A model generated the notes under the pieces. The model ran no database searches and was not told the origin of the DNA. It worked only from the letters and a program-made list of their open reading frames with translations. A stretch of 34,728 nucleotides of DNA from a virus. Lineage: Duplodnaviria; Heunggongvirae; Uroviricota; Caudoviricetes. Below, piece by piece: positions 16,117 through 34,728 of the stretch. Both the position numbers and the translations under genes were made by a program. The DNA is taken from IMG/VR virus record IMGVR_UViG_2660237933_000001; one strand, given 5' to 3'. Numbering within the stretch: the first letter of the stretch is position 1; each line of letters begins with the position of its first letter.

Positions 16117-16387
16117 GTTTCAGTTCCTCAATCCGGTGTTGTCGTTGTCTCAGTAGTGCGCTGGTCTGTTCTGCGTCGGCATAGAGTCGCGCCTGCTCCC
16201 GGTTGTTGGTTTCTGTCAGAATGGACAGGCTGATAAGCTGGCTGTTGCTCTTTGCCAGTGCCTGGCTTTTGCTCTGCAGCTCATCTGCCTGCGTGCTGAT
16301 GGTCTGGCTGGCATCAGCCAGCCGCCACGTCTGCCAGCCCAGCGCCGCCAGTAATAACGCCAGCACAACCAGCAGCAACCGGTTCAT
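15959..16387 (-). CDS. lysB: LysB (Rz-like inner-membrane spanin)
   Basis: 142-aa ORF with N-terminal transmembrane segment MNRLLLVVLALLLAALGW and coiled-coil rest. Confidence 0.8.
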   Translation of the reverse strand: MNRLLLVVLALLLAALGWQTWRLADASQTISTQADELQSKSQALAKSNSQLISLSILTETNNREQARLYADAEQTSALLRQRQHRIEELKRENEDLRRWADTPLPADIIRLRERPTLTGGAAYRQWLSASDAVSAGAGSAAH

Positions 16388-22709: not shown

Positions 22710-23746
22710 TGGGAAAGAGTAAGAAAAACCGCGCTGCGGCGATGAATCACATCCAGTATAAAAGCCAGACTTCAGCCGAAGCATTCAGCTTCGGCGATCC
22801 CGTTCCTGTTCTGGACCGCCGAGAATTACTGGACTATGTGGAATGCATACAGATGGACCGTTGGTATGAGCCGCCCGTCAGCTTTGACGGACTGGCGCGC
22901 ACCTTCCGCGCCGCCGTGCATCACAGTTCCCCGATTGCAGTAAAGTGCAACATTCTGACCAGTACCTATATCCCTCATCCGCTGCTCAGCCAGCAGGCTT
23001 TTTCGCGTTTTGTGCAAGACTATCTGGTATTTGGTAACGCCTACCTGGAGAAACGCACGAACCGCTTCGGTGAAGTTATCGCCCTTGAACCTGCCTTGGC
23101 GAAATACACACGACGCGGGTTAGACCTGGATACCTACTGGTTTGTGCAATACGGTATGACAACACAGCCGTATCAGTTCACGAAAGGCAGCATCTTTCAT
23201 CTGATGGAACCGGACATTAACCAGGAGATCTACGGCCTGCCCGGCTATCTTTCTGCCATTCCGTCAGCCCTGCTCAATGAGTCCGCCACGCTGTTCCGCC
23301 GTAAGTATTACATCAACGGCAGCCATGCAGGCTTCATCATGTACATGACCGACGCCGCGCAGAATCAGGAGGATGTGAACAATCTCCGCAACGCGATGAA
23401 AAGCGCCAAAGGTCCAGGCAACTTCCGCAACCTGTTTATGTACTCGCCTAACGGCAAAAAGGACGGCCTTCAGATCATCCCTTTGTCAGAAGTTGCGGCG
23501 AAGGATGAGTTTCTGAATATCAAAAATGTCAGCCGCGATGACATGATGGCAGCACATCGCGTTCCGCCACAGATGATGGGGATTATGCCAAATAATGTTG
23601 GGGGTTTTGGGGATGTGGAGAAGGCTAGTCTTGTATTTGTTCGCAATGAATTGATGCCACTACAGAAGCGACTACATGAACTAAACGAATGGGTGGGTGC
23701 AGAAGTAATACGTTTTGATGACTATGTTTTAGGTGTTCAGGAATAA
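22706..23746 (+). CDS. Q: Portal protein Q
   Basis: 346-aa ORF overlapping the P stop by 4 nt; recalled as gpQ portal family. Confidence 0.9.
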   Translation: MMGKSKKNRAAAMNHIQYKSQTSAEAFSFGDPVPVLDRRELLDYVECIQMDRWYEPPVSFDGLARTFRAAVHHSSPIAVKCNILTSTYIPHPLLSQQAFSRFVQDYLVFGNAYLEKRTNRFGEVIALEPALAKYTRRGLDLDTYWFVQYGMTTQPYQFTKGSIFHLMEPDINQEIYGLPGYLSAIPSALLNESATLFRRKYYINGSHAGFIMYMTDAAQNQEDVNNLRNAMKSAKGPGNFRNLFMYSPNGKKDGLQIIPLSEVAAKDEFLNIKNVSRDDMMAAHRVPPQMMGIMPNNVGGFGDVEKASLVFVRNELMPLQKRLHELNEWVGAEVIRFDDYVLGVQE

Positions 23747-23753
23747 AAGAAAA

Positions 23754-23775
23754 GGCGCTAATCTCAGCGCCTTTT
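23754..23775. terminator. Bidirectional rho-independent terminator
   Basis: GGCGCT-AATCTC-AGCGCC perfect stem flanked by A-run upstream and T-run downstream; sits between convergent Q and the 112-aa cargo gene. Confidence 0.65.
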
Positions 23776-23792
23776 ATCTAACTAACCATATA

Positions 23793-24131
23793 TTAACAAA
23801 CGGCGTATAAACCATCAAATCCAACGGAATGAACCTTTTTTGATGCTACTTCATTACTACGGCGTTGGATCACTTTTGCAATACTTTTTAAAATTGAAGG
23901 GGGTGCATTGCGAACCTTAACTTGACTCAAAACTTTGGTTACACCGAATTTCACTACCAAAACACCAAAGATTTCATCAGAGTATGATTCTGAAATTGAA
24001 TAAACACCGCTCAGATCTAAATCTACGGTATACCCTTCTTTAATGAACCCTTCAATCTTGTGTCGTTGGGGGATAGCCTGATTGCGCGAAGCCAGGTCAC
24101 CCTCGGGTAACTTGTATGCGATTTTGTTCAT
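23793..24131 (-). CDS. Hypothetical STAS-like (anti-sigma-factor-antagonist-like) small protein
   Basis: 112-aa ORF; strong AGGAGG RBS; start overlaps the upstream gene stop (TAATG). Motif DLDLSGVYSISESYSDEIFGVLVV resembles the SpoIIAA/RsbV-type phosphorylatable-serine region. AT-rich. Confidence 0.6.
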   Translation of the reverse strand: MNKIAYKLPEGDLASRNQAIPQRHKIEGFIKEGYTVDLDLSGVYSISESYSDEIFGVLVVKFGVTKVLSQVKVRNAPPSILKSIAKVIQRRSNEVASKKVHSVGFDGLYAVC

Positions 24132-25105
24132 TACTCTCCTCCTAACGCCCGCATTATTTCCATAAGCTGAGGGTCATTTTCTTCGCTATCTTTATCGACT
24201 GCCAGTTCATGAATCTTAAAACGGCAAGAAATTGCTACACCCGGCCATTCAGTACGTAATTCAGTATAGCTCACTTCATCACCTATTGCTTCTAAGCATA
24301 CATTTCCTGAAGCCAGTTGCAATTCCCCGTTATATGTTTTTATCAATTTCATCAAGTGATACAACCCAAGCCCTTGATGATTATTATCTTTTTCTTTGAC
24401 CGAAACCCCGTGGCCAAACACACTACCCCCAATAAAGTCCTGGGGAAGCTGCTGTGCCCAATCATCCTGCAAATCAGCATGCTTAGATGAATGTCCCTCT
24501 TGAATACACCATGCGATCGCATCCTGGTGAGTCTCAATTCCGGGTATACCAGCTCGCCGCAATTCTCGGAGAAATCCTAACCCACAGTCCGCCAAAGAAA
24601 ATTCTAAATAGTGCTCTTTTTTTTGAGTGTGGGGTACAGCCGAACGTTGTGCAAAAGAAAAACCCGTTGATTTTCCATGCGACCAAACGTTATCGTGAAG
24701 CTCACCTATAACATGGGTTAGATCTGTAAGTCCCTTGGGACAATCTCTCGGATCACGATCAGGGAATGTTAACTGCCTTACACAACTGTTAATACTACCA
24801 GTGGCAACGTCAACAGCTTCAACATTGGTTAATGCTGTAACCAAACTGTAATTTCTTCCAACATTTACACGTTCCTGTTGATACTGATCCTCTCCCCATA
24901 AAGCACCATGTAAATTGATAGCTCGCATATAGCCAGGGCATGACAAAACACAGTTATCTTCGGTAATTTTGTGATGATTCACGTAAGCTGCTAAGACAGT
25001 GATAAAACCAGGATGCCAATGATTGTTTGGCAATTGCAATTCATTAGTTTCCTTTTGATGAAACGCAGCGGTATGCACAATAGCGTCTTTTAATCCTAAC
25101 CCCAT
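24131..25105 (-). CDS. Hypothetical GHKL-family ATPase / serine-kinase-like protein
   Basis: 324-aa ORF. C-terminal half has an N-box-like ELHDNVWSHG (E, N+4, H+8, G+9 spacing as in SpoIIAB/RsbW), a G1-like DCGLG and a G2-like GLGLYHL; N-terminal ~125 aa unassigned. AT-rich. Confidence 0.6.
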   Translation of the reverse strand: MGLGLKDAIVHTAAFHQKETNELQLPNNHWHPGFITVLAAYVNHHKITEDNCVLSCPGYMRAINLHGALWGEDQYQQERVNVGRNYSLVTALTNVEAVDVATGSINSCVRQLTFPDRDPRDCPKGLTDLTHVIGELHDNVWSHGKSTGFSFAQRSAVPHTQKKEHYLEFSLADCGLGFLRELRRAGIPGIETHQDAIAWCIQEGHSSKHADLQDDWAQQLPQDFIGGSVFGHGVSVKEKDNNHQGLGLYHLMKLIKTYNGELQLASGNVCLEAIGDEVSYTELRTEWPGVAISCRFKIHELAVDKDSEENDPQLMEIMRALGGE

Positions 25106-25134
25106 GAACCGAACCTTTTTTATGCATTTTTCTT

Positions 25135-25163
25135 ATCATATAACTTAGGACTGATCAGCGCAA
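25135..25163 (-). promoter_or_regulatory. Candidate sigma70 promoter for the cargo pair
   Basis: On the minus strand TTGCGC-17 bp-TATGAT about 30 bp upstream of the 324-aa ORF start. Confidence 0.25.
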
Positions 25164-25222
25164 AGCTCCCGACACTATTGAATCATACTAAATTAAGGCC
25201 TATACCACACAGCACAGCGCGC

Positions 25223-25242
25223 GCTCGTATCCCCGCCACGCC
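25223..25242 (-). other. cos-like cohesive-end site
   Basis: Minus strand reads GGCGTGGCGGGGATACGAGC; the first 13 nt match what I recall of the 186 cohesive end (GGCGTGGCGGGGAAAGCAT) and the P2 one is similar. Confidence 0.5.
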
Positions 25243-25446
25243 TGCCCGCTTTATGCAGTGGTTTTCATGCACCTGCATGATCTACGCAAAAGCCCGCCAG
25301 TTCTGGCGGGCCTTAGCAAAAACGATCCTCAAACGATCATGCGATCTCATGCGGCATAGACATGCACTACAGAGCTAACGCCTCGCAAGGGCTCGTTGTT
25401 CAACCTTGCTGACGCCAGAAGCAAGTTCAGACGCCAGCAACGTTTC

Positions 25447-25680
25447 TTAATGCAGCCAGCTGTCGTCTTCCCACACTTTCTGCATAATTTTCATCACTTG
25501 TTTTCTTTCTTCGTCCAGTTGCAGTCCGGTAAGTTCCACACCGTTAGAGCTACCTTTGCGGATACGAATTACCGTTTTGGGATACAGGGGGCGCAGGTTG
25601 CGGTAAAGCTCGGACTCCAGAGCGTCCAGGGTAGACTGGCTAATCTTCTGCTCTTTATCGATCATTATTTCAATGCGCAT
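25447..25680 (-). CDS. dinI: DinI-like protein
   Basis: MRIEIMIDKEQKISQSTLDALESELYRNLRPLYPKTVIRIRKGSSNGVELTGLQLDEERKQVMKIMQKVWEDDSWLH matches the DinI pattern (MRIEV...EL..R......V....NG......KE....I.E.WE..D.W); GAGGTGA RBS upstream. Confidence 0.8.
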   Translation of the reverse strand: MRIEIMIDKEQKISQSTLDALESELYRNLRPLYPKTVIRIRKGSSNGVELTGLQLDEERKQVMKIMQKVWEDDSWLH

Positions 25681-25690
25681 AAAAGTCACC

Positions 25691-25879
25691 TCAGCTGATG
25701 ACATCCATTGAGCGGTTGTATTCGTGGGTTCTGATTTTTGCCATGAGTTCATCTGTTAGTTCAGAAACCCACTGCAGGGCCAGCCCCTTCTCTTCATCAC
25801 TACACTCACTAGCCGCTACAAGCTTAAGAAAAAAATCAATGCGCTGGAGCTTCAAAGACTCCAAAAAATAGTCCTGCAT
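25691..25879 (-). CDS. Hypothetical 62-aa protein, possibly the N-terminal (antirepressor) part of a Tum-like unit
   Basis: First ORF downstream of the LexA box and immediately upstream of the DinI-like ORF, in a different frame; 186 Tum is recalled to carry a DinI-like C-terminal domain. Confidence 0.4.
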   Translation of the reverse strand: MQDYFLESLKLQRIDFFLKLVAASECSDEEKGLALQWVSELTDELMAKIRTHEYNRSMDVIS

Positions 25880-25919
25880 CTTTCCTCCTATGACACCAAA
25901 GCAATACTGTATACATAAC

Positions 25920-25939
25920 CACTGTTTATATTTACAGTA
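25920..25939. promoter_or_regulatory. LexA box (SOS operator)
   Basis: CACTGTTTATATTTACAGTA matches the consensus TACTGTATATATATACAGTA at 17 of 20 positions with an intact CTGT-N8-ACAG core; about 45 bp upstream of the 62-aa ORF start. Confidence 0.65.
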
Positions 25940-26031
25940 TATAATAATCTTACTGATGTAAAACGTTTTTTTACGTTCATCAGCCTGATATGCCTGGTAT
26001 TATTAAGAGCACGAATTGTTAACCCGCGTAA

Positions 26032-28446
26032 TTAATACAGATCCCGCCACTTATCATCTTCCTGCAAACGCTGGTTCCGATAGAAGATACGCAGGCCTGC
26101 TCCTGACGGAATACTGCCGCCGCGAAGGAGTAAACCGACCTCTTTCTCGCTGCCATCAAATCCTCTGGACTTCAGCTCATAGACGAGCTGCTGTCGCTGA
26201 TGGTCTGTAATTCGCTGTTTGTAGTCTTTACGCCGTTTCGGTTTCACCAGGCGTAACCTTGCAGCCAGTTCCCGGCGCTCTTTTTTGCTCATACTGTGCA
26301 GGTAATCGTGCAACTCCTTGTCATCCATGCGGGTAATGTCCATTCTGGTATCCCCATAAGCTGATTTGTCTTTCCCTTGTTGGTTCAAATTTTCAGCAAG
26401 GGGACAGTTATTGCCACGAGTCCAAGGGGCGCAAGCGCCCTGGTCGGCTGCCGCCTCCTGAACGTCAACGGCCTTACGAACCATTTTCCACTTCACTGCA
26501 TGAGTGCAGATTTTGCCCTCTGCAATGGGTGACCAGATGCCATAAATACGAATGCCGTGATCGCCATAGGCGGTCGGCTCTTCGTTGATTTCATAAGCGG
26601 TTCTGATGAGGTGATATTTACGGGGAACCAGTACGCCGCCCTGCTTCATGATGTAGGTGGCAAAACAACCAGCATCAGCTGCAGCCAGAATGGCATCAAG
26701 GCGCTGGTTATCCAGTACCGGCGCACCTGCTTTTTTGTCACCCTGTTGCCTTGCCGCCTGACCAGCCAGCAATCGCAGTTCACGGTAAGCCTGACGCCCC
26801 GGAATGCCAAAGAAGCGGAATTGCTGAACACGATGCAGAGACGCCCAGGCATTAACGTATTCAGCGTTATCACGCAGAGATTTACCCGTTTCCTTGCTGA
26901 TCTCGCCAGCCAGACCACGCCCGTCAATGTTCTTACTGATGTATTTCGCGATGTAGCTAGTCGGCGTTCCTTTGCGCGGGTTTATCAGCTCAGACTTAAA
27001 GCGTGGCCCCGTGTTATTACCCAGCTCCTCGCGGTCTTCACGGATAGCAAACTTACGCAACAATGCAGTAATGGCGCGGCGGTCTTTTTTGCGCATGAAA
27101 CACAACAGGTGCCAGTGAACTGTGCCGTCATGATGCGGCTCAGCCACCCGCACGCCATACCAGCGCAACCCGGCTTTGTGCATCGCCTTACGAAATGCAG
27201 CAAACATGCCGACCAGATAATCACTGCTTTGTCTTACCGTCGCATTTGTCCAGGTCGGGTTGGGCCTGCCGTTATTTAGCGTGGAATGGAAACGTGACGG
27301 ACAGGTGATGGTGTAGAAAACGGCGCAGTCACCGCGCATTTCCGCGATAAGCTCCAGACCTTTAACACAGGCCATCATCTCATTGCGGCGATGCGCAGGG
27401 TTGCTGCTGCTGGCGTTTACCACATCCTCCATGTCCAGCGTGTCGCCGTCTTCGTTCACCAGTTCATGAGAACGGAAAAACTCCAGCGACTTACGGCGCT
27501 GCTCACGTTTATGCATCACGGCTTCATAGCTGACATAGGGAGATGCTTTTTTGCTGACCAGGCAAACAGCACGCAACTGCTCTTCCCGCCATTCGCAACG
27601 CATCTTCCATAATTTCCGGTACCACCAATCGGCGCACAACATACGCGCCAGCGAACCCGGAATGAGTTCATAGGGCACGGGTTTACGGCGGTTTCTTTTC
27701 CGGCGGAGTTGCTCAAACGCAGGCGGTATGACATCCAGTCGCAGGGTTTCTGCTGCCACCTTTTCCCATGTCTTGCGGATTTCTTCTGGCTTAACATCAT
27801 CGGTGGCGTACAAATCACCACAAGCGGCATCAAGACACATACTCATATGCGCAGCGACAAGAGTAGACAGGCGTTTCACCTGATCCTGACTCATTTCAGG
27901 CAAGATCAGCAGGCCGTCCAGCCCTTCATGGCTTGCCATAAAGCGAAAAGAAGTGGATAGCTGACTGTCGCGTACATGCTCCAGTCGTTCCAGACATGGC
28001 TTAATCGTCTCACGCAAATAGCGGGAATAAGCCTTTGGCCTGCCCAGGCTGCTGAAGTATTCAATACGTTGCATCAGCGGCTTGCTGATATGGGAAGGCT
28101 GGGCGTTAACGTCCGCCAGTATGACCATGTCCGGATTAAAACGCTGCTGCTCATGCGCCAGCTTTGCCCGGCTAATAAGCTTATCCTGCTCCATTTCGCG
28201 CTGGACAGGATCACGGGATTCATTAAAGAAATAACGCTCCCAGACCTGATCACTCAGTGCCTCGCGGCGCAGTTGTTCCTGCTCGTTATCGGCAGCGTAC
28301 AGAGTGATCAGGTTTGAAAGCGCAGAAACCGGCGCAACTTCCGCCGGGTCCAGATAAGGGTTAATAGCCTTTTTCGGGCTGTTCCATGAGAATGCTGCGG
28401 CGGCCTCGTTAAAGCCGCTGCAGTTGTTCATATCAGCATGGCTCAT
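26032..28446 (-). CDS. A: Replication initiation protein A (rolling-circle nickase)
   Basis: 804-aa ORF with an HxH-containing segment (GTVHWHLL) and a tyrosine motif [16 protein letters not shown], as recalled for P2/186 gpA. Confidence 0.9.
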
Positions 28447-30634: not shown

Positions 30635-31144
30635 TCACAGCAAACCGAATGAAGCACCAAGGCCAGTCATGGTATCAACTGCACTCGCCATCGCCGGGTT
30701 AGCCTGTAAACGGGCCTGCAATGAAACAGCAGCCAGCGCCATCAGTCGTGTTACAGAGTTAATGCTGCTGATAGCATCACGACGACCTGCACTGGTTTTT
30801 ACATTGCCAGATACCGCACCTGCAGCAACACGCCCGATCTCTGCGGTTGCACTCATGACGTAATGCGGCAGTTTCTCTTTTGCTACCTCATTAATCGGTA
30901 CACATGGCAGGCAGTGAATCTGTGCCAGAAAACCATCTATCAGCGTTGAATCTTCAGTAAGATCGGTAAGCAGCCAGATTTCTGGCGCATTGAGCTGATG
31001 CGGTTGATCTGGGTTGAGTTTGTTCCGCAGAGTCTGGACATTCATTCCTGCACGTTCTGCCAGCTTCGCCATATTGTGACGAAGTGCAAAAGCTCTACAG
31101 GCTTCATCAAAATGCGGGTGTTTGGAAATCTTATAATCAAACAT
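30635..31144 (-). CDS. cII: CII-like transcriptional regulator (186 CII family)
   Basis: 169-aa ORF MFDYKISKHPHFDEACRAFALRHNMAKLAERAGMNVQTLRNKLNP... recalled as phage CII (186-type); second gene of the minus-strand early operon. Confidence 0.75.
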   Translation of the reverse strand: MFDYKISKHPHFDEACRAFALRHNMAKLAERAGMNVQTLRNKLNPDQPHQLNAPEIWLLTDLTEDSTLIDGFLAQIHCLPCVPINEVAKEKLPHYVMSATAEIGRVAAGAVSGNVKTSAGRRDAISSINSVTRLMALAAVSLQARLQANPAMASAVDTMTGLGASFGLL

Positions 31145-31176: not shown

Positions 31177-31419
31177 TTACTTACCAACAATGACGCGGAA
31201 GTTGGAATGACCGAGGGATTCACGGACCTGATCGGTTTTGTACATTAAATAACGCAGGCTTACGCGGCCTTTGTTTTTTTCTTTCTTGACCATGTATTTA
31301 GCAAGCTGACCATGGTGAATTTTTTGATACACGGAGCCGCGGGAGATACCTTCCCATTCCGCGAACTCTGCAGGCGTAGCCATCTCTTTTGGTACACGAA
31401 TTGAAATATCAGTGCTCAT
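31177..31419 (-). CDS. apl: Apl/Cox-like excisionase-repressor (small HTH protein)
   Basis: 80-aa ORF, first gene of the early operon, divergent from cI; HTH-like segment ATPAEFAEWEGISRGSVYQKIHHGQL. Confidence 0.65.
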   Translation of the reverse strand: MSTDISIRVPKEMATPAEFAEWEGISRGSVYQKIHHGQLAKYMVKKEKNKGRVSLRYLMYKTDQVRESLGHSNFRVIVGK

Positions 31420-31538: not shown

Positions 31539-32171
31539 ATGATACAGGTAAAGGCTGGAGAGAATACAGGGGGAAGAGAAGCTATCCATAGACTAATGGC
31601 AGCCTATGATTTCAAGTCCAGACAGCAACTTTGCGATCACTTAGGCGCATCAAAAAGCACCATGGCAAACAGATACTTAAGAGATAGTTTTCCTGCAGAG
31701 TGGGTGATTCAGTGCGCCTTGGAAACAGGAGTTTCTTTACTGTGGCTAACCACCGGACAGGGGGAGCCAGGTCCAAACATTGAACCTAAAAAAAATATCA
31801 ATTCCGTGAACTCCAGCAAGGTTGTACCTCTTTCTGAACTAGTATCTCCTGAAATTGACAAGGCGACTCTCAACGGTGGTTTATTGGTCGATGCTGGAAA
31901 AGCAATCATTGATAGCAGCATACTCCCCTCAGACTCAAGCAACCTACTGCTGGTGACTACTTCTGGTGATTCTTATTTAATAGATCGCAACCAAACACCA
32001 CCAGTGAATGGTATGTGGTTAGTCGATATCGACGGGATAAAAAGCATTGTTAAATTGACTCGACTCCCGGGAAACAGATTAGTAGTGCATCAGGATGATT
32101 CATCGTTTGAGTGTGGCCTGGATGACATTGAGGTAGTAGGCCGTGCACTGAAAATCATTAAGAGCCTTTGA
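31539..32171 (+). CDS. cI: CI-like immunity repressor
   Basis: 210-aa ORF divergent from apl and directly upstream of int (1-nt gap), as in 186 cI-int. Confidence 0.7.
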   Translation: MIQVKAGENTGGREAIHRLMAAYDFKSRQQLCDHLGASKSTMANRYLRDSFPAEWVIQCALETGVSLLWLTTGQGEPGPNIEPKKNINSVNSSKVVPLSELVSPEIDKATLNGGLLVDAGKAIIDSSILPSDSSNLLLVTTSGDSYLIDRNQTPPVNGMWLVDIDGIKSIVKLTRLPGNRLVVHQDDSSFECGLDDIEVVGRALKIIKSL

Positions 32172-33198: not shown

Positions 33199-34728
33199 GT
33201 GATTAAAAATATAGACATTCAATCAGATGCTGTTGCTAAATTGAGAATGGACTCTATTCGTTCAGAAATTCAAAGTTATAACCCCGAATTATTCATTGAA
33301 TTCTGCATGCAATATAATCTACAAAAATTTGATGATAATTTACACATGCTGCGTCATATGCCGTGGATAGTAAACTTATGTTTAAAATGGTCAGCATCTG
33401 TAATAGGCAAGAATAGAAAGTTCAAAACCCTTACAAAAAATCAAGCCATCAAGCTATTTCAAAAAGCCTATGAAACTTTAAGTATCATCCCCATTGGTCT
33501 TGAAAAGAAAAACGGAGTGCATTTTTTTCCAAGAAATAATTTATACCAGCAAGGTATTTATCAAAAAATTGACGCAATAAACTCCATTAGCAGACAGGTA
33601 TTTTTATTCTCACAACTCGAAAACACTCATAAAATAAAGACATCGTTTTTCAAGTTAACAAACATTTCAATTGATGATTTTTTAAAACTATCTTACATTT
33701 TAATATCACTAATAACAACGGAACATCCCGTCAGAAAAATAAATGTTAATAGTTTCAGTGTGTTATTCCCTATTTTACCCAAAGATACCGTAGAGAACTT
33801 TCTCGATGCAATCTCAATAAATTACAGTGAGCTATCAAAATTTTCAAAATCCAAGACATTTGAAAAGCCTTTGTTAGAATACTATTCATCTTCACCGTAC
33901 TTAGAAAATCCTTTAATCAAAAAAGGTTCTGATTATTTCCAGATACATGCACAACTAACATCAAGAAGCATACAAACATTTATATATGACCTTTTAAGAA
34001 GAACTGACGCTGAAAAATTCATGGACAGTTTTGGAACTGTATTCGAAAGAGCATTAGGAAAAATTATTCAAGAGAGTAATATTCCTGTTATCACAGAGGA
34101 TCATCTTAAAGAAAAGTTACCCAAAGATAATAAAGTAGTTGATTTTTTGTTTCCACACGCGAATGCAAATATATTCATTGATGCCAAGGGGGTTGAAATA
34201 CATCAAAAAGGCATGGTTACTTTACGGCCAGAGGATATTTCAGGAAAAATAAAAAAGTCTGTTTTAAAAGCTATCGAGCAAGCTCATGAAGTTAACAGAG
34301 AAATTTACTTAGACGATAAAGCAACAATAACCCCATTCAGGAAAGAATCTTTTGTGATATGCATTACATATAAAAACTTATTTTTAGGTAATGGTACATT
34401 CCTTGCCAGTACATATGCAGAAACTGAGATGCTAAAGATATATGATAAATTCAATACTGACTACCACATACCTAAAGAAAATATATTTTGCTTAGCTTTT
34501 GATGAATTTGAGTACCTTGTTGCATCCTGCAAAAATGCACATGTGCCTCCTCATATGGTTCTGCAATACGCAGTTGAAAAGAACAAAGAACCATCCAGTG
34601 CAGCCTTCCTTTTTTCCCAACATATAGAAAGCTATTTTGATAGAGTTATTAATTCTGATGTAGTAAATGAGATGGGAATAAAAATGGTTGACTCAGTTCT
34701 GGAAAAAATTTCCCAAAATGAAAACTAA
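33199..34728 (+). CDS. Hypothetical 509-aa protein, possible PD-(D/E)xK nuclease-like core
   Basis: Long uninterrupted ORF, strongly AT-rich and Lys/Asn/Ile-rich, starting 12 bp after int; contains VVDFLFPHANANIFIDAKG (D...hhh-D-x-K); no Walker A motif seen. Confidence 0.6.
   Translation: MIKNIDIQSDAVAKLRMDSIRSEIQSYNPELFIEFCMQYNLQKFDDNLHMLRHMPWIVNLCLKWSASVIGKNRKFKTLTKNQAIKLFQKAYETLSIIPIGLEKKNGVHFFPRNNLYQQGIYQKIDAINSISRQVFLFSQLENTHKIKTSFFKLTNISIDDFLKLSYILISLITTEHPVRKINVNSFSVLFPILPKDTVENFLDAISINYSELSKFSKSKTFEKPLLEYYSSSPYLENPLIKKGSDYFQIHAQLTSRSIQTFIYDLLRRTDAEKFMDSFGTVFERALGKIIQESNIPVITEDHLKEKLPKDNKVVDFLFPHANANIFIDAKGVEIHQKGMVTLRPEDISGKIKKSVLKAIEQAHEVNREIYLDDKATITPFRKESFVICITYKNLFLGNGTFLASTYAETEMLKIYDKFNTDYHIPKENIFCLAFDEFEYLVASCKNAHVPPHMVLQYAVEKNKEPSSAAFLFSQHIESYFDRVINSDVVNEMGIKMVDSVLEKISQNEN

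Follow-up and report, generated by a model that had tools for sequence, protein, structure and literature searches.

Coliphage 186 Tum binds the CI repressor and keeps CI from binding to the operators (Shearwin et al., 1998, as cited in PMC3121763). In the 186 annotation, the promoter p95 has its -10 element on the first half of a LexA box, and tum itself carries three internal starts, which give truncated products; the partial terminator t95a and orf97 follow. For the DinI-like protein of P2-like phages, annotation notes give the role 'modulates SOS induction'. In Fels-2 and PSP3 the tum region is split by a stop codon (Lemire et al., 2011, PMC3121763), and in PSP3 the upstream gene was reported to be the antirepressor and the downstream gene a DinI homologue (personal communication cited in PMC3121763). 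The GenBank record of PSP3 describes tumA as 'similar to 5' end 186 tum; UV induction of prophage' and tumB as 'similar to dinI and 3' end of 186 tum'. Phage 186 keeps an internal Shine-Dalgarno sequence and a GTG codon before its DinI module, from which a free DinI-like product is made even so; both activities are thus provided by the fused as well as by the split form. A literature search for tumA/tumB returned nothing relevant.

In DuoHS, a prophage of E. coli HS, deletion of tum or a lexA(Ind-) background abolishes induction by mitomycin C; with the deletion, both mitomycin C-induced lysis and the formation of virions are lost (Ortiz de Ora et al., PMC12055606). Primer NHR28 (ATAGGAGGAAAGATGTGAGGTGACTTTTATGCGCATTG) joins the ATG and the TGA of a 62-aa ORF without touching the DinI-like gene. 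Because the deletion removes only this ORF, the 'tum' of DuoHS is the same 62-aa ORF to which the first-pass annotation of the DNA described here had drawn attention. Outside the P2-like phages, the double operators of colicin genes bind two LexA dimers cooperatively, with very tight repression and tight or late induction (PMC2994835). For colicin N the heterology indices are 7.55 for the distal and 11.61 for the proximal box (PMC2994835).

The window, by which we mean the whole 34.7-kb stretch of DNA that was analysed, is an E. coli prophage of the P2 family (Peduoviridae). Along its minus strand a DNA methylase gene is followed by the gene for replication protein A (804 aa, 28446-26032), the tum unit and two cargo genes, beyond which the portal and terminase genes are found on the opposite strand. 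The tum unit (25879-25447), with all its genes on the minus strand, is thus directly 3' of replication gene A, and the succession of A and a tum unit with a DinI-like module is common to 186, PSP3, Fels-2, SopEPhi, DuoHS and Klebsiella phages. In the immunity region, at 30.6-33.2 kb, there are a CII homologue, an ORF at the position of Apl, a 186-type CI and an integrase. E. coli S171-1 shares 99.8% identity with the segment from 23700 to 26100, and about a quarter of the complete E. coli genomes (1280 of 5426) match parts of that segment. The unit of DuoHS (L014:24620-25052) has about 97% nucleotide identity to that of the window, including the promoter-operator and both genes, and the sequence flanking the ORF deleted in DuoHS is identical in the window.

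We read this locus as the SOS operon of an E. coli prophage, a Fels-2/186-like member of the Peduoviridae; it would consist of a tumA-type antirepressor gene and a free DinI-like gene, and we assign this reading a probability of about 0.9. The unit is of an already known and experimentally characterised kind, a two-gene DNA-damage switch. The proposal made at first pass, that a LexA-controlled Tum/DinI-like unit makes this prophage SOS-inducible, is supported by the homologies, by conservation and by the nearly identical unit of DuoHS.

LexA box 1 lies at 25920-25939 on the minus strand, where it reads TACTGTAAATATAAACAGTG (CACTGTTTATATTTACAGTA on the plus strand). With three mismatches to the 20-mer consensus TACTGTATATATATACAGTA, it is the sole site of that quality in the window, and none of 100 dinucleotide-preserving shuffles gave its equal, so that the near-consensus operator claimed earlier is borne out. 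It shows the features by which SOS boxes of Gammaproteobacteria are recognised: CTGT-N8-ACAG, an A+T-rich spacer and a place in a promoter region. The looser core CTGT-N8-ACAG is less informative, with two sites in the window against 0.6 expected; the second copy, at 16213, sits inside a late gene, and its spacer is G+C-rich. The box had been placed about 45 bp upstream of the 62-aa ORF; it is indeed upstream, the distance to the ATG being 40 nt. All ten relatives compared have a LexA box at the equivalent position upstream of the homologous gene.

From the sequence we infer a tum promoter equivalent to p95 of phage 186, with a putative -35 element TTTACA at 25957-25962 and a putative -10 element TACTGT at 25939-25934, both on the minus strand; the latter is formed by the first six bases of LexA box 1. 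The arrangement TTTACA-N17-TACTGT is kept in Fels-2, SopEPhi, Klebsiella phage ST437-OXA245phi4.1 and Yersinia phage MLG42, while the sequence of the spacer diverges. A strict consensus promoter scan called none at this position. At the other end of the unit, a strong hairpin followed by UUUUG (25287-25314, minus strand) is the likely terminator of the tum operon. Its predicted RNA fold has an energy of -24.8 kcal/mol (z -4.3), with no equally stable fold in 200 shuffles, and its position matches that of t95a in phage 186; a simple terminator scan missed it, the T-run being short. A scan also reported a weak hairpin spanning the stop of tumA and the start of dinI, which was set aside as chance (two sites against 0.9 expected).

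The first-pass annotation missed GGTTATGTATACAGTA, which comes right after box 1 and forms a second, overlapping and degenerate SOS box. SOS box 2 (CAGTGGTTATGTATACAGTA; 25905-25924, minus strand) matches the promoter-operators of the colicin type column for column. The 16-nt cores of the two boxes, at 25937-25922 and 25922-25907, have a single base in common, an overlap also seen in the colicin-type double operator. In the Fels-2 clade GGTTAT-T-TACAGT directly follows the box. A 56-nt query taken from the operator region had matches in 214 plasmid records, of which many are Col-type plasmids, small and mobilizable; in the three plasmids inspected the match was just upstream of the pesticin, colicin N and cloacin genes. 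The aligned pattern is ACTGTA-ATA-AA-CAGTGGTTAT-T-TACAGT, in which CAGTGGTTAT-T-TACAGT is invariant. Over 38 nt the operator is identical to that of colicin N at 33 positions, among them the non-consensus left half (GTGG) of box 2. Operator quality was judged by mismatch counts and by alignment to colicin operators with published heterology indices. A literature search with the operator string found no match. Phages 186, PSP3 and ESSI-2 and the Yersinia phages have a single SOS box. The window most likely carries a double SOS operator of the colicin type, and LexA may be expected to occupy both boxes.

The first gene of the unit, of the tum/tumA type, is at 25691-25879 on the minus strand and encodes 62 aa; it is preceded by a GGAGG Shine-Dalgarno sequence at 25884-25888 and ends with TGA. 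BLASTP of the 62-aa ORF gave no alignment with 186 Tum and none with PSP3 TumA. In tblastn searches, the ORF and the Tum N-terminus both fell on one and the same reading frame, which in Yersinia enterocolitica phages encodes a 60-aa 'tum protein'. As this shared match was obtained despite the negative BLASTP results, homology was tested with profiles. When 1.84 billion representatives were searched exhaustively with phmmer, 66 members of the family came out, almost all stand-alone proteins of 55-75 aa, and a family HMM was made from 33 clean, diverse members and the 62-aa ORF.

The family HMM matched residues 5-48 of 186 Tum with 34.9 bits and 120 fused, 146-aa Tum proteins with about 36 bits. 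It gave 37 bits with the Yersinia phage 'tum protein' and 55 bits with YenM324, against 6 bits for the best decoy in a six-frame translation of the window. Comparison by hhalign of the family with the N-terminal halves of 88 distinct fused Tum proteins gave a probability of 96.5% (E 7.7e-10), with residues 3-44 of both aligned ungapped. In the reciprocal direction, an HMM of the Tum N-terminal half scored 11.6 bits for the 62-aa ORF and up to 38 bits for members of the family. The motif common to the family and the Tum N-terminal half reads roughly E-x-x-x-(L/I)-(Q/E)-R-(I/V)-(D/E)-x-(I/F)-x-(R/K)-L-x-A-x-x-x-C-x-x-x-(D/E)-(K/R)-x-x-A-L-x-W-(I/V)-(A/S)-E-L. At the level of profiles, the 62-aa ORF is homologous, if diverged, to residues 3-48 of 186 Tum, which lie in its antirepressor half; similarity to the N-terminal region of Tum, whose absence had been named at first pass among the grounds for refutation, is thus seen with profiles, BLASTP being negative. 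PSP3 TumA scored only 4 bits with the family HMM, and the link to the phage in which antirepressor activity of the upstream gene was explicitly reported is therefore indirect.

The 62-aa ORF belongs to PHROG 698, of 'unknown function'. It has no family in Pfam, NCBIfam or PADLOC and is a 'hypothetical protein' everywhere, in RefSeq as in the phage records, and DinI homologues are LexA-controlled prophage genes elsewhere too, for example in Gifsy. An SOS-modulating moron, consisting of a DinI-like gene and an unrelated small protein, with no control over the lysis-lysogeny switch and with induction, if any, by another route, would fit these facts. Against this stand the profile homology of the small protein to the N-terminal half of 186 Tum, the loss of mitomycin C-induced lysis and virion formation in DuoHS upon deletion of exactly this ORF, and the structure of the CI repressor of the window, which is without an S24 self-cleavage domain. 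We consider a moron of this kind highly unlikely, and return to the reading of the 62-aa ORF as the antirepressor gene of the unit. The gene has a dN/dS of 0.06-0.12 (0.07-0.09 in comparisons with relatives at a dS of about 1), and compared with E. coli HS it shows four synonymous substitutions and a single non-synonymous one (T51S; 98% identical).

The second gene, of the tumB type, extends from 25447 to 25680 on the minus strand and encodes a DinI-family protein of 77 aa. Its product matches the Pfam family DinI (PF06183) over profile positions 1-63 of 63, with an E value of 6.6e-23 and 81.3 bits against a cut-off of 24.2. It is 41% identical, without gaps, to residues 71-145 of 186 Tum, and aligns end to end with the E. 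coli DinI structure 1GHH (E 2.7e-6), including the C-terminal motif W-E-(D/S)-x-D-(S/D)-W. The likeness to DinI noted at first pass is in this way confirmed. With NCBIfam equivalog PRK10597 the protein scores 42.7 bits, the cut-off being 111; as judged from its sequence, it is a phage paralogue and not an orthologue of chromosomal dinI. The ORF list had given it 101 aa, with a start at 25752. The annotations of all relatives use the equivalent of the ATG at 25680, which is almost certainly the true start, and a GAGGTG Shine-Dalgarno sequence for this ORF is present at 25687-25692, overlapping the tumA stop codon. The gene is under purifying selection (dN/dS 0.00-0.06, and 0.05-0.06 in comparisons with relatives at a dS of about 1); there are eight synonymous and no non-synonymous differences from E. 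coli HS, and Fels-2 and E. coli HS encode exactly this protein. Membership in the DinI family suggests that it may bind RecA filaments and alter their co-protease activity; its most likely role is to tune the RecA filament, and hence the strength or duration of the SOS signal, and it would not be the inducer.

The two ORFs are in different frames, as had been observed, with starts offset by 199 nt; they are separated by a gap of 10 nt and do not overlap. Whether this is a genuine pair of genes or a frameshifted tum had been left undecided. Taken together, the 62 and 77 aa come roughly to the length of 186 Tum (146 aa), and the DinI frame has 25 open codons ahead of its ATG, as might be expected of a tum broken by a frameshift, a nonsense mutation or a sequencing error, with SOS inducibility lost or weakened. 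The distribution of the layout is at odds with such an accident. Both ORFs are intact in 68 phage records, including Fels-2, SopEPhi, RE2010 and SEN8, along with many prophages from Klebsiella, Yersinia phage MLG42 and several E. coli phages, and the layout is present in about 1280 of 5426 complete E. coli genomes. Relatives end the first gene with TGA, TAA or TAG, leave 10-12 nt between the two genes and have them offset in frame by 1, 2 or 0, a variety that fits independent cistrons and not one recent lesion. Across both genes dN/dS is 0.05-0.12 at a dS of about 1, indicating purifying selection. No fusion of the 62-aa family, as the N-terminal part, to a DinI domain was found among the 66 representatives, and the split form works in DuoHS. 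Longer phmmer matches proved to be upstream start miscalls, chimeric or frameshifted fragments, or low-complexity repeats. Since each gene has its own Shine-Dalgarno sequence and ATG, is under purifying selection and varies in its frame relative to the other, there is no frameshift, and a broken tum is barely credible. The unit is a genuine two-gene operon of tumA and a DinI-like gene, which settles the question in favor of the two-gene form.

The active antirepressor might also be conceived as a fused, Tum-like protein made by programmed frameshifting or stop-codon readthrough. A +1 shift in the last 20 or so codons of the 62-aa ORF of the window would join the two frames, the genes of PSP3 and MLG42 share a frame with only a stop codon between them, and phage 186 yields both full-length and truncated products. 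Such recoding would have to accommodate frame offsets of 1, 2 and 0, together with an open extension upstream of the DinI ATG that is not conserved among phages, being 25, 14, 4 or 1 codons long; no single mechanism fits all of these, and the junction shows no sign of a conserved slippery motif. In Yersinia YenM and ESSI-2-type phages the Tum homologue stands alone, without a downstream DinI gene, from which it follows that the small protein works by itself. A recoded fusion is accordingly exceedingly unlikely, and the two separate products are taken as the functional ones in what follows.

The presumed target of the antirepressor is the 186-type CI immunity repressor, a protein of 210 aa encoded at 31539-32171 on the plus strand. 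It is flanked by the ORF at the Apl position (31177-31419) and the CII homologue (30635-31144), both on the minus strand. The window CI aligns over its full length with 186 CI (32% identity, E 1e-35), and contains the Pfam domains Phage_CI_repr and Phage_CI_C and no Peptidase_S24 domain. Because this self-cleavage domain is absent, an antirepressor is needed for SOS induction; a CI of this type requires an induction route that is independent of RecA and based on an antirepressor. By analogy with 186, Tum would contact CI in this phage as well. The window CI is only 44% identical to that of DuoHS, with a conserved N-terminal and a divergent C-terminal domain, and the action of Tum on it is therefore extrapolated.

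The following course of events is envisaged. In the lysogen, host LexA would be bound to the double operator (25939-25905), covering the -10 element and the start site of a sigma-70 promoter, and the operon would be silent. After DNA damage, activated RecA would bring about the self-cleavage of LexA, and the promoter would then fire to give a bicistronic mRNA. The 62-aa antirepressor made from the first cistron would, if it acts as 186 Tum does, bind the 186-type CI non-covalently and block its binding to the operators. The early lytic promoter would be derepressed and the prophage would excise and replicate. The second cistron would supply the free DinI-like protein, corresponding to the C-terminal half of 186 Tum and to its internally initiated, truncated products.

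Two extensions of this scheme are put forward tentatively, and we regard them as somewhat doubtful. Given its closeness to the operators of Col plasmids (33/38 nt, with the non-consensus half-site in common), the operator is perhaps a horizontally shared cassette that would keep prophage induction tightly shut, late or at a high threshold, and confined to few cells. A single Tum perhaps also cross-induces heteroimmune P2-like prophages: the near-invariant 62-aa Tum is paired with CI proteins that are 38-57% identical overall, and the fact that one Tum is found with divergent CIs sharing a conserved N-terminal domain suggests such cross-induction. The colicin-like double operator thus offers a modest lead on induction thresholds, and the pairing of one Tum with many types of CI a modest lead on crosstalk between prophages. 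For annotation the consequences are more immediate. The prophage is to be described as probably SOS-inducible and of the 186/Fels-2 type, and not as a non-inducible prophage of the P2 type. At present only the accessory DinI-like gene gets a name, and 186 Tum itself is labelled 'RecA filament binding protein DinI'; thousands of annotations would be put right if the TumA-type antirepressor had a family model.

DuoHS has the same two cistrons as the window, tum (ECHS_RS04495) and the adjacent DinI-like gene (ECHS_RS04500), in the same position between replication gene A and the cargo and portal genes. A single residue separates its Tum from that of the window, and the DinI-like protein is the same in both, whereas the downstream cargo genes differ. 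The operon with its double operator and promoter hexamers recurs in the Felsduovirus members Fels-2 (STM2728 and STM2726.1) and SopEPhi (orf10/orf11). Fels-2 Tum is 98% and its DinI-like protein 100% identical to those of the window; these prophages reside in Salmonella, however, and have other downstream genes, and SopEPhi is more divergent (dS about 1), with another relative frame. PSP3 shares the layout of two genes behind a LexA box downstream of A, tumB coding for a 77-aa DinI homologue. Its TumA is very divergent, there is a single SOS box, and the two genes are in the same frame with a stop codon between them.

Phage 186 resembles the window in having a LexA box over the -10 element, the unit after gene A, a terminator downstream and a CI/Apl/CII-type switch. 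In contrast to the window, it has both modules fused in one 146-aa Tum, with a linker of about 25 aa, and a single SOS box. The dinI-gfoA/gftA operons of the Salmonella prophages Gifsy-1 and Gifsy-2 (PMC3121763) are also LexA-repressed and encode a small antirepressor along with a separate DinI homologue, but dinI comes first, the antirepressor and repressor families are unrelated and the phages are lambdoid. The likeness to the colicin, pesticin and cloacin genes is confined to the operator. These have CCAG where box 1 of the window has the consensus ACAG, their flanking promoter and leader sequences are unrelated, and the operator that there controls a bacteriocin is found in the window before a prophage antirepressor.

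The gene for the probable functional antirepressor, the 62-aa tumA (25691-25879 of the window, minus strand), is labelled 'hypothetical protein' in the databases (comparison records L001, L003 and L014, the last being the E. coli HS prophage DuoHS), and in one record it is called 'levan regulatory domain protein'. It is without any model in Pfam or NCBIfam, and its PHROG family, 698, is listed as 'unknown function'. The Tum of phage 186, in contrast, has been given the label 'RecA filament binding protein DinI'. Taken together, these labels amount to a systematic annotation gap.

The presumed target, the 186-type repressor CI (31539-32171, plus strand), is 38-57% identical to the CIs of phages that encode an identical or near-identical 62-aa Tum (L014-L018). 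Across these repressors, the window's included, conservation is strong in the N-terminal HTH domain (aa 12-75), and the C-terminal domain varies. This pattern suggests that the N-terminal domain is the contact site of Tum, and that Tum could act across immunity types.

Directly 5' of its DinI module, the fused tum gene of 186 still carries the Shine-Dalgarno sequence AAGGAGG together with a GTG start codon (L002 9265-9305). Their position matches the intercistronic junction in phages with a split tum, such as Fels-2, which is consistent with either a gene fusion or the deliberate co-production of a free DinI-like protein. In the window, a weak hairpin, GTCATC...GGTGAC with TTTT (25685-25702, minus strand), covers both the stop codon of tumA and the Shine-Dalgarno sequence from which the DinI-like gene is translated. 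Such a hairpin could influence translation of the second cistron, but its occurrence falls within the range given by chance.

Two overlapping cargo genes (23793-25105, minus strand) lie where P2 has its tin/old hotspot, with the likely terminator of the tum operon on one side and the portal gene on the other. The 324-aa product has weak similarity to a GHKL-ATPase (phrog_3364) and the 112-aa product is a STAS-like DUF4325 protein. The pair resembles a kinase and its STAS partner. It may be a defence system; PADLOC gave weak matches only. At the int end of the prophage, 13 nt beyond the integrase stop codon, begins a 509-aa ORF (33199-34728, plus strand) for an antiphage protein of the GapS1 family (NCBIfam NF047931, 442 bits; cut-off 320), with no match in PADLOC v2 or Pfam; it is a defence cargo gene.

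The tum operator (25905-25939, minus strand) is most likely a double overlapping SOS box of the colicin type. At 33 of 38 positions it matches the operator of colicin N, and the pesticin and cloacin promoters of small Col plasmids align with it likewise. Only one SOS box is present in 186, PSP3, the Yersinia phages and ESSI-2.
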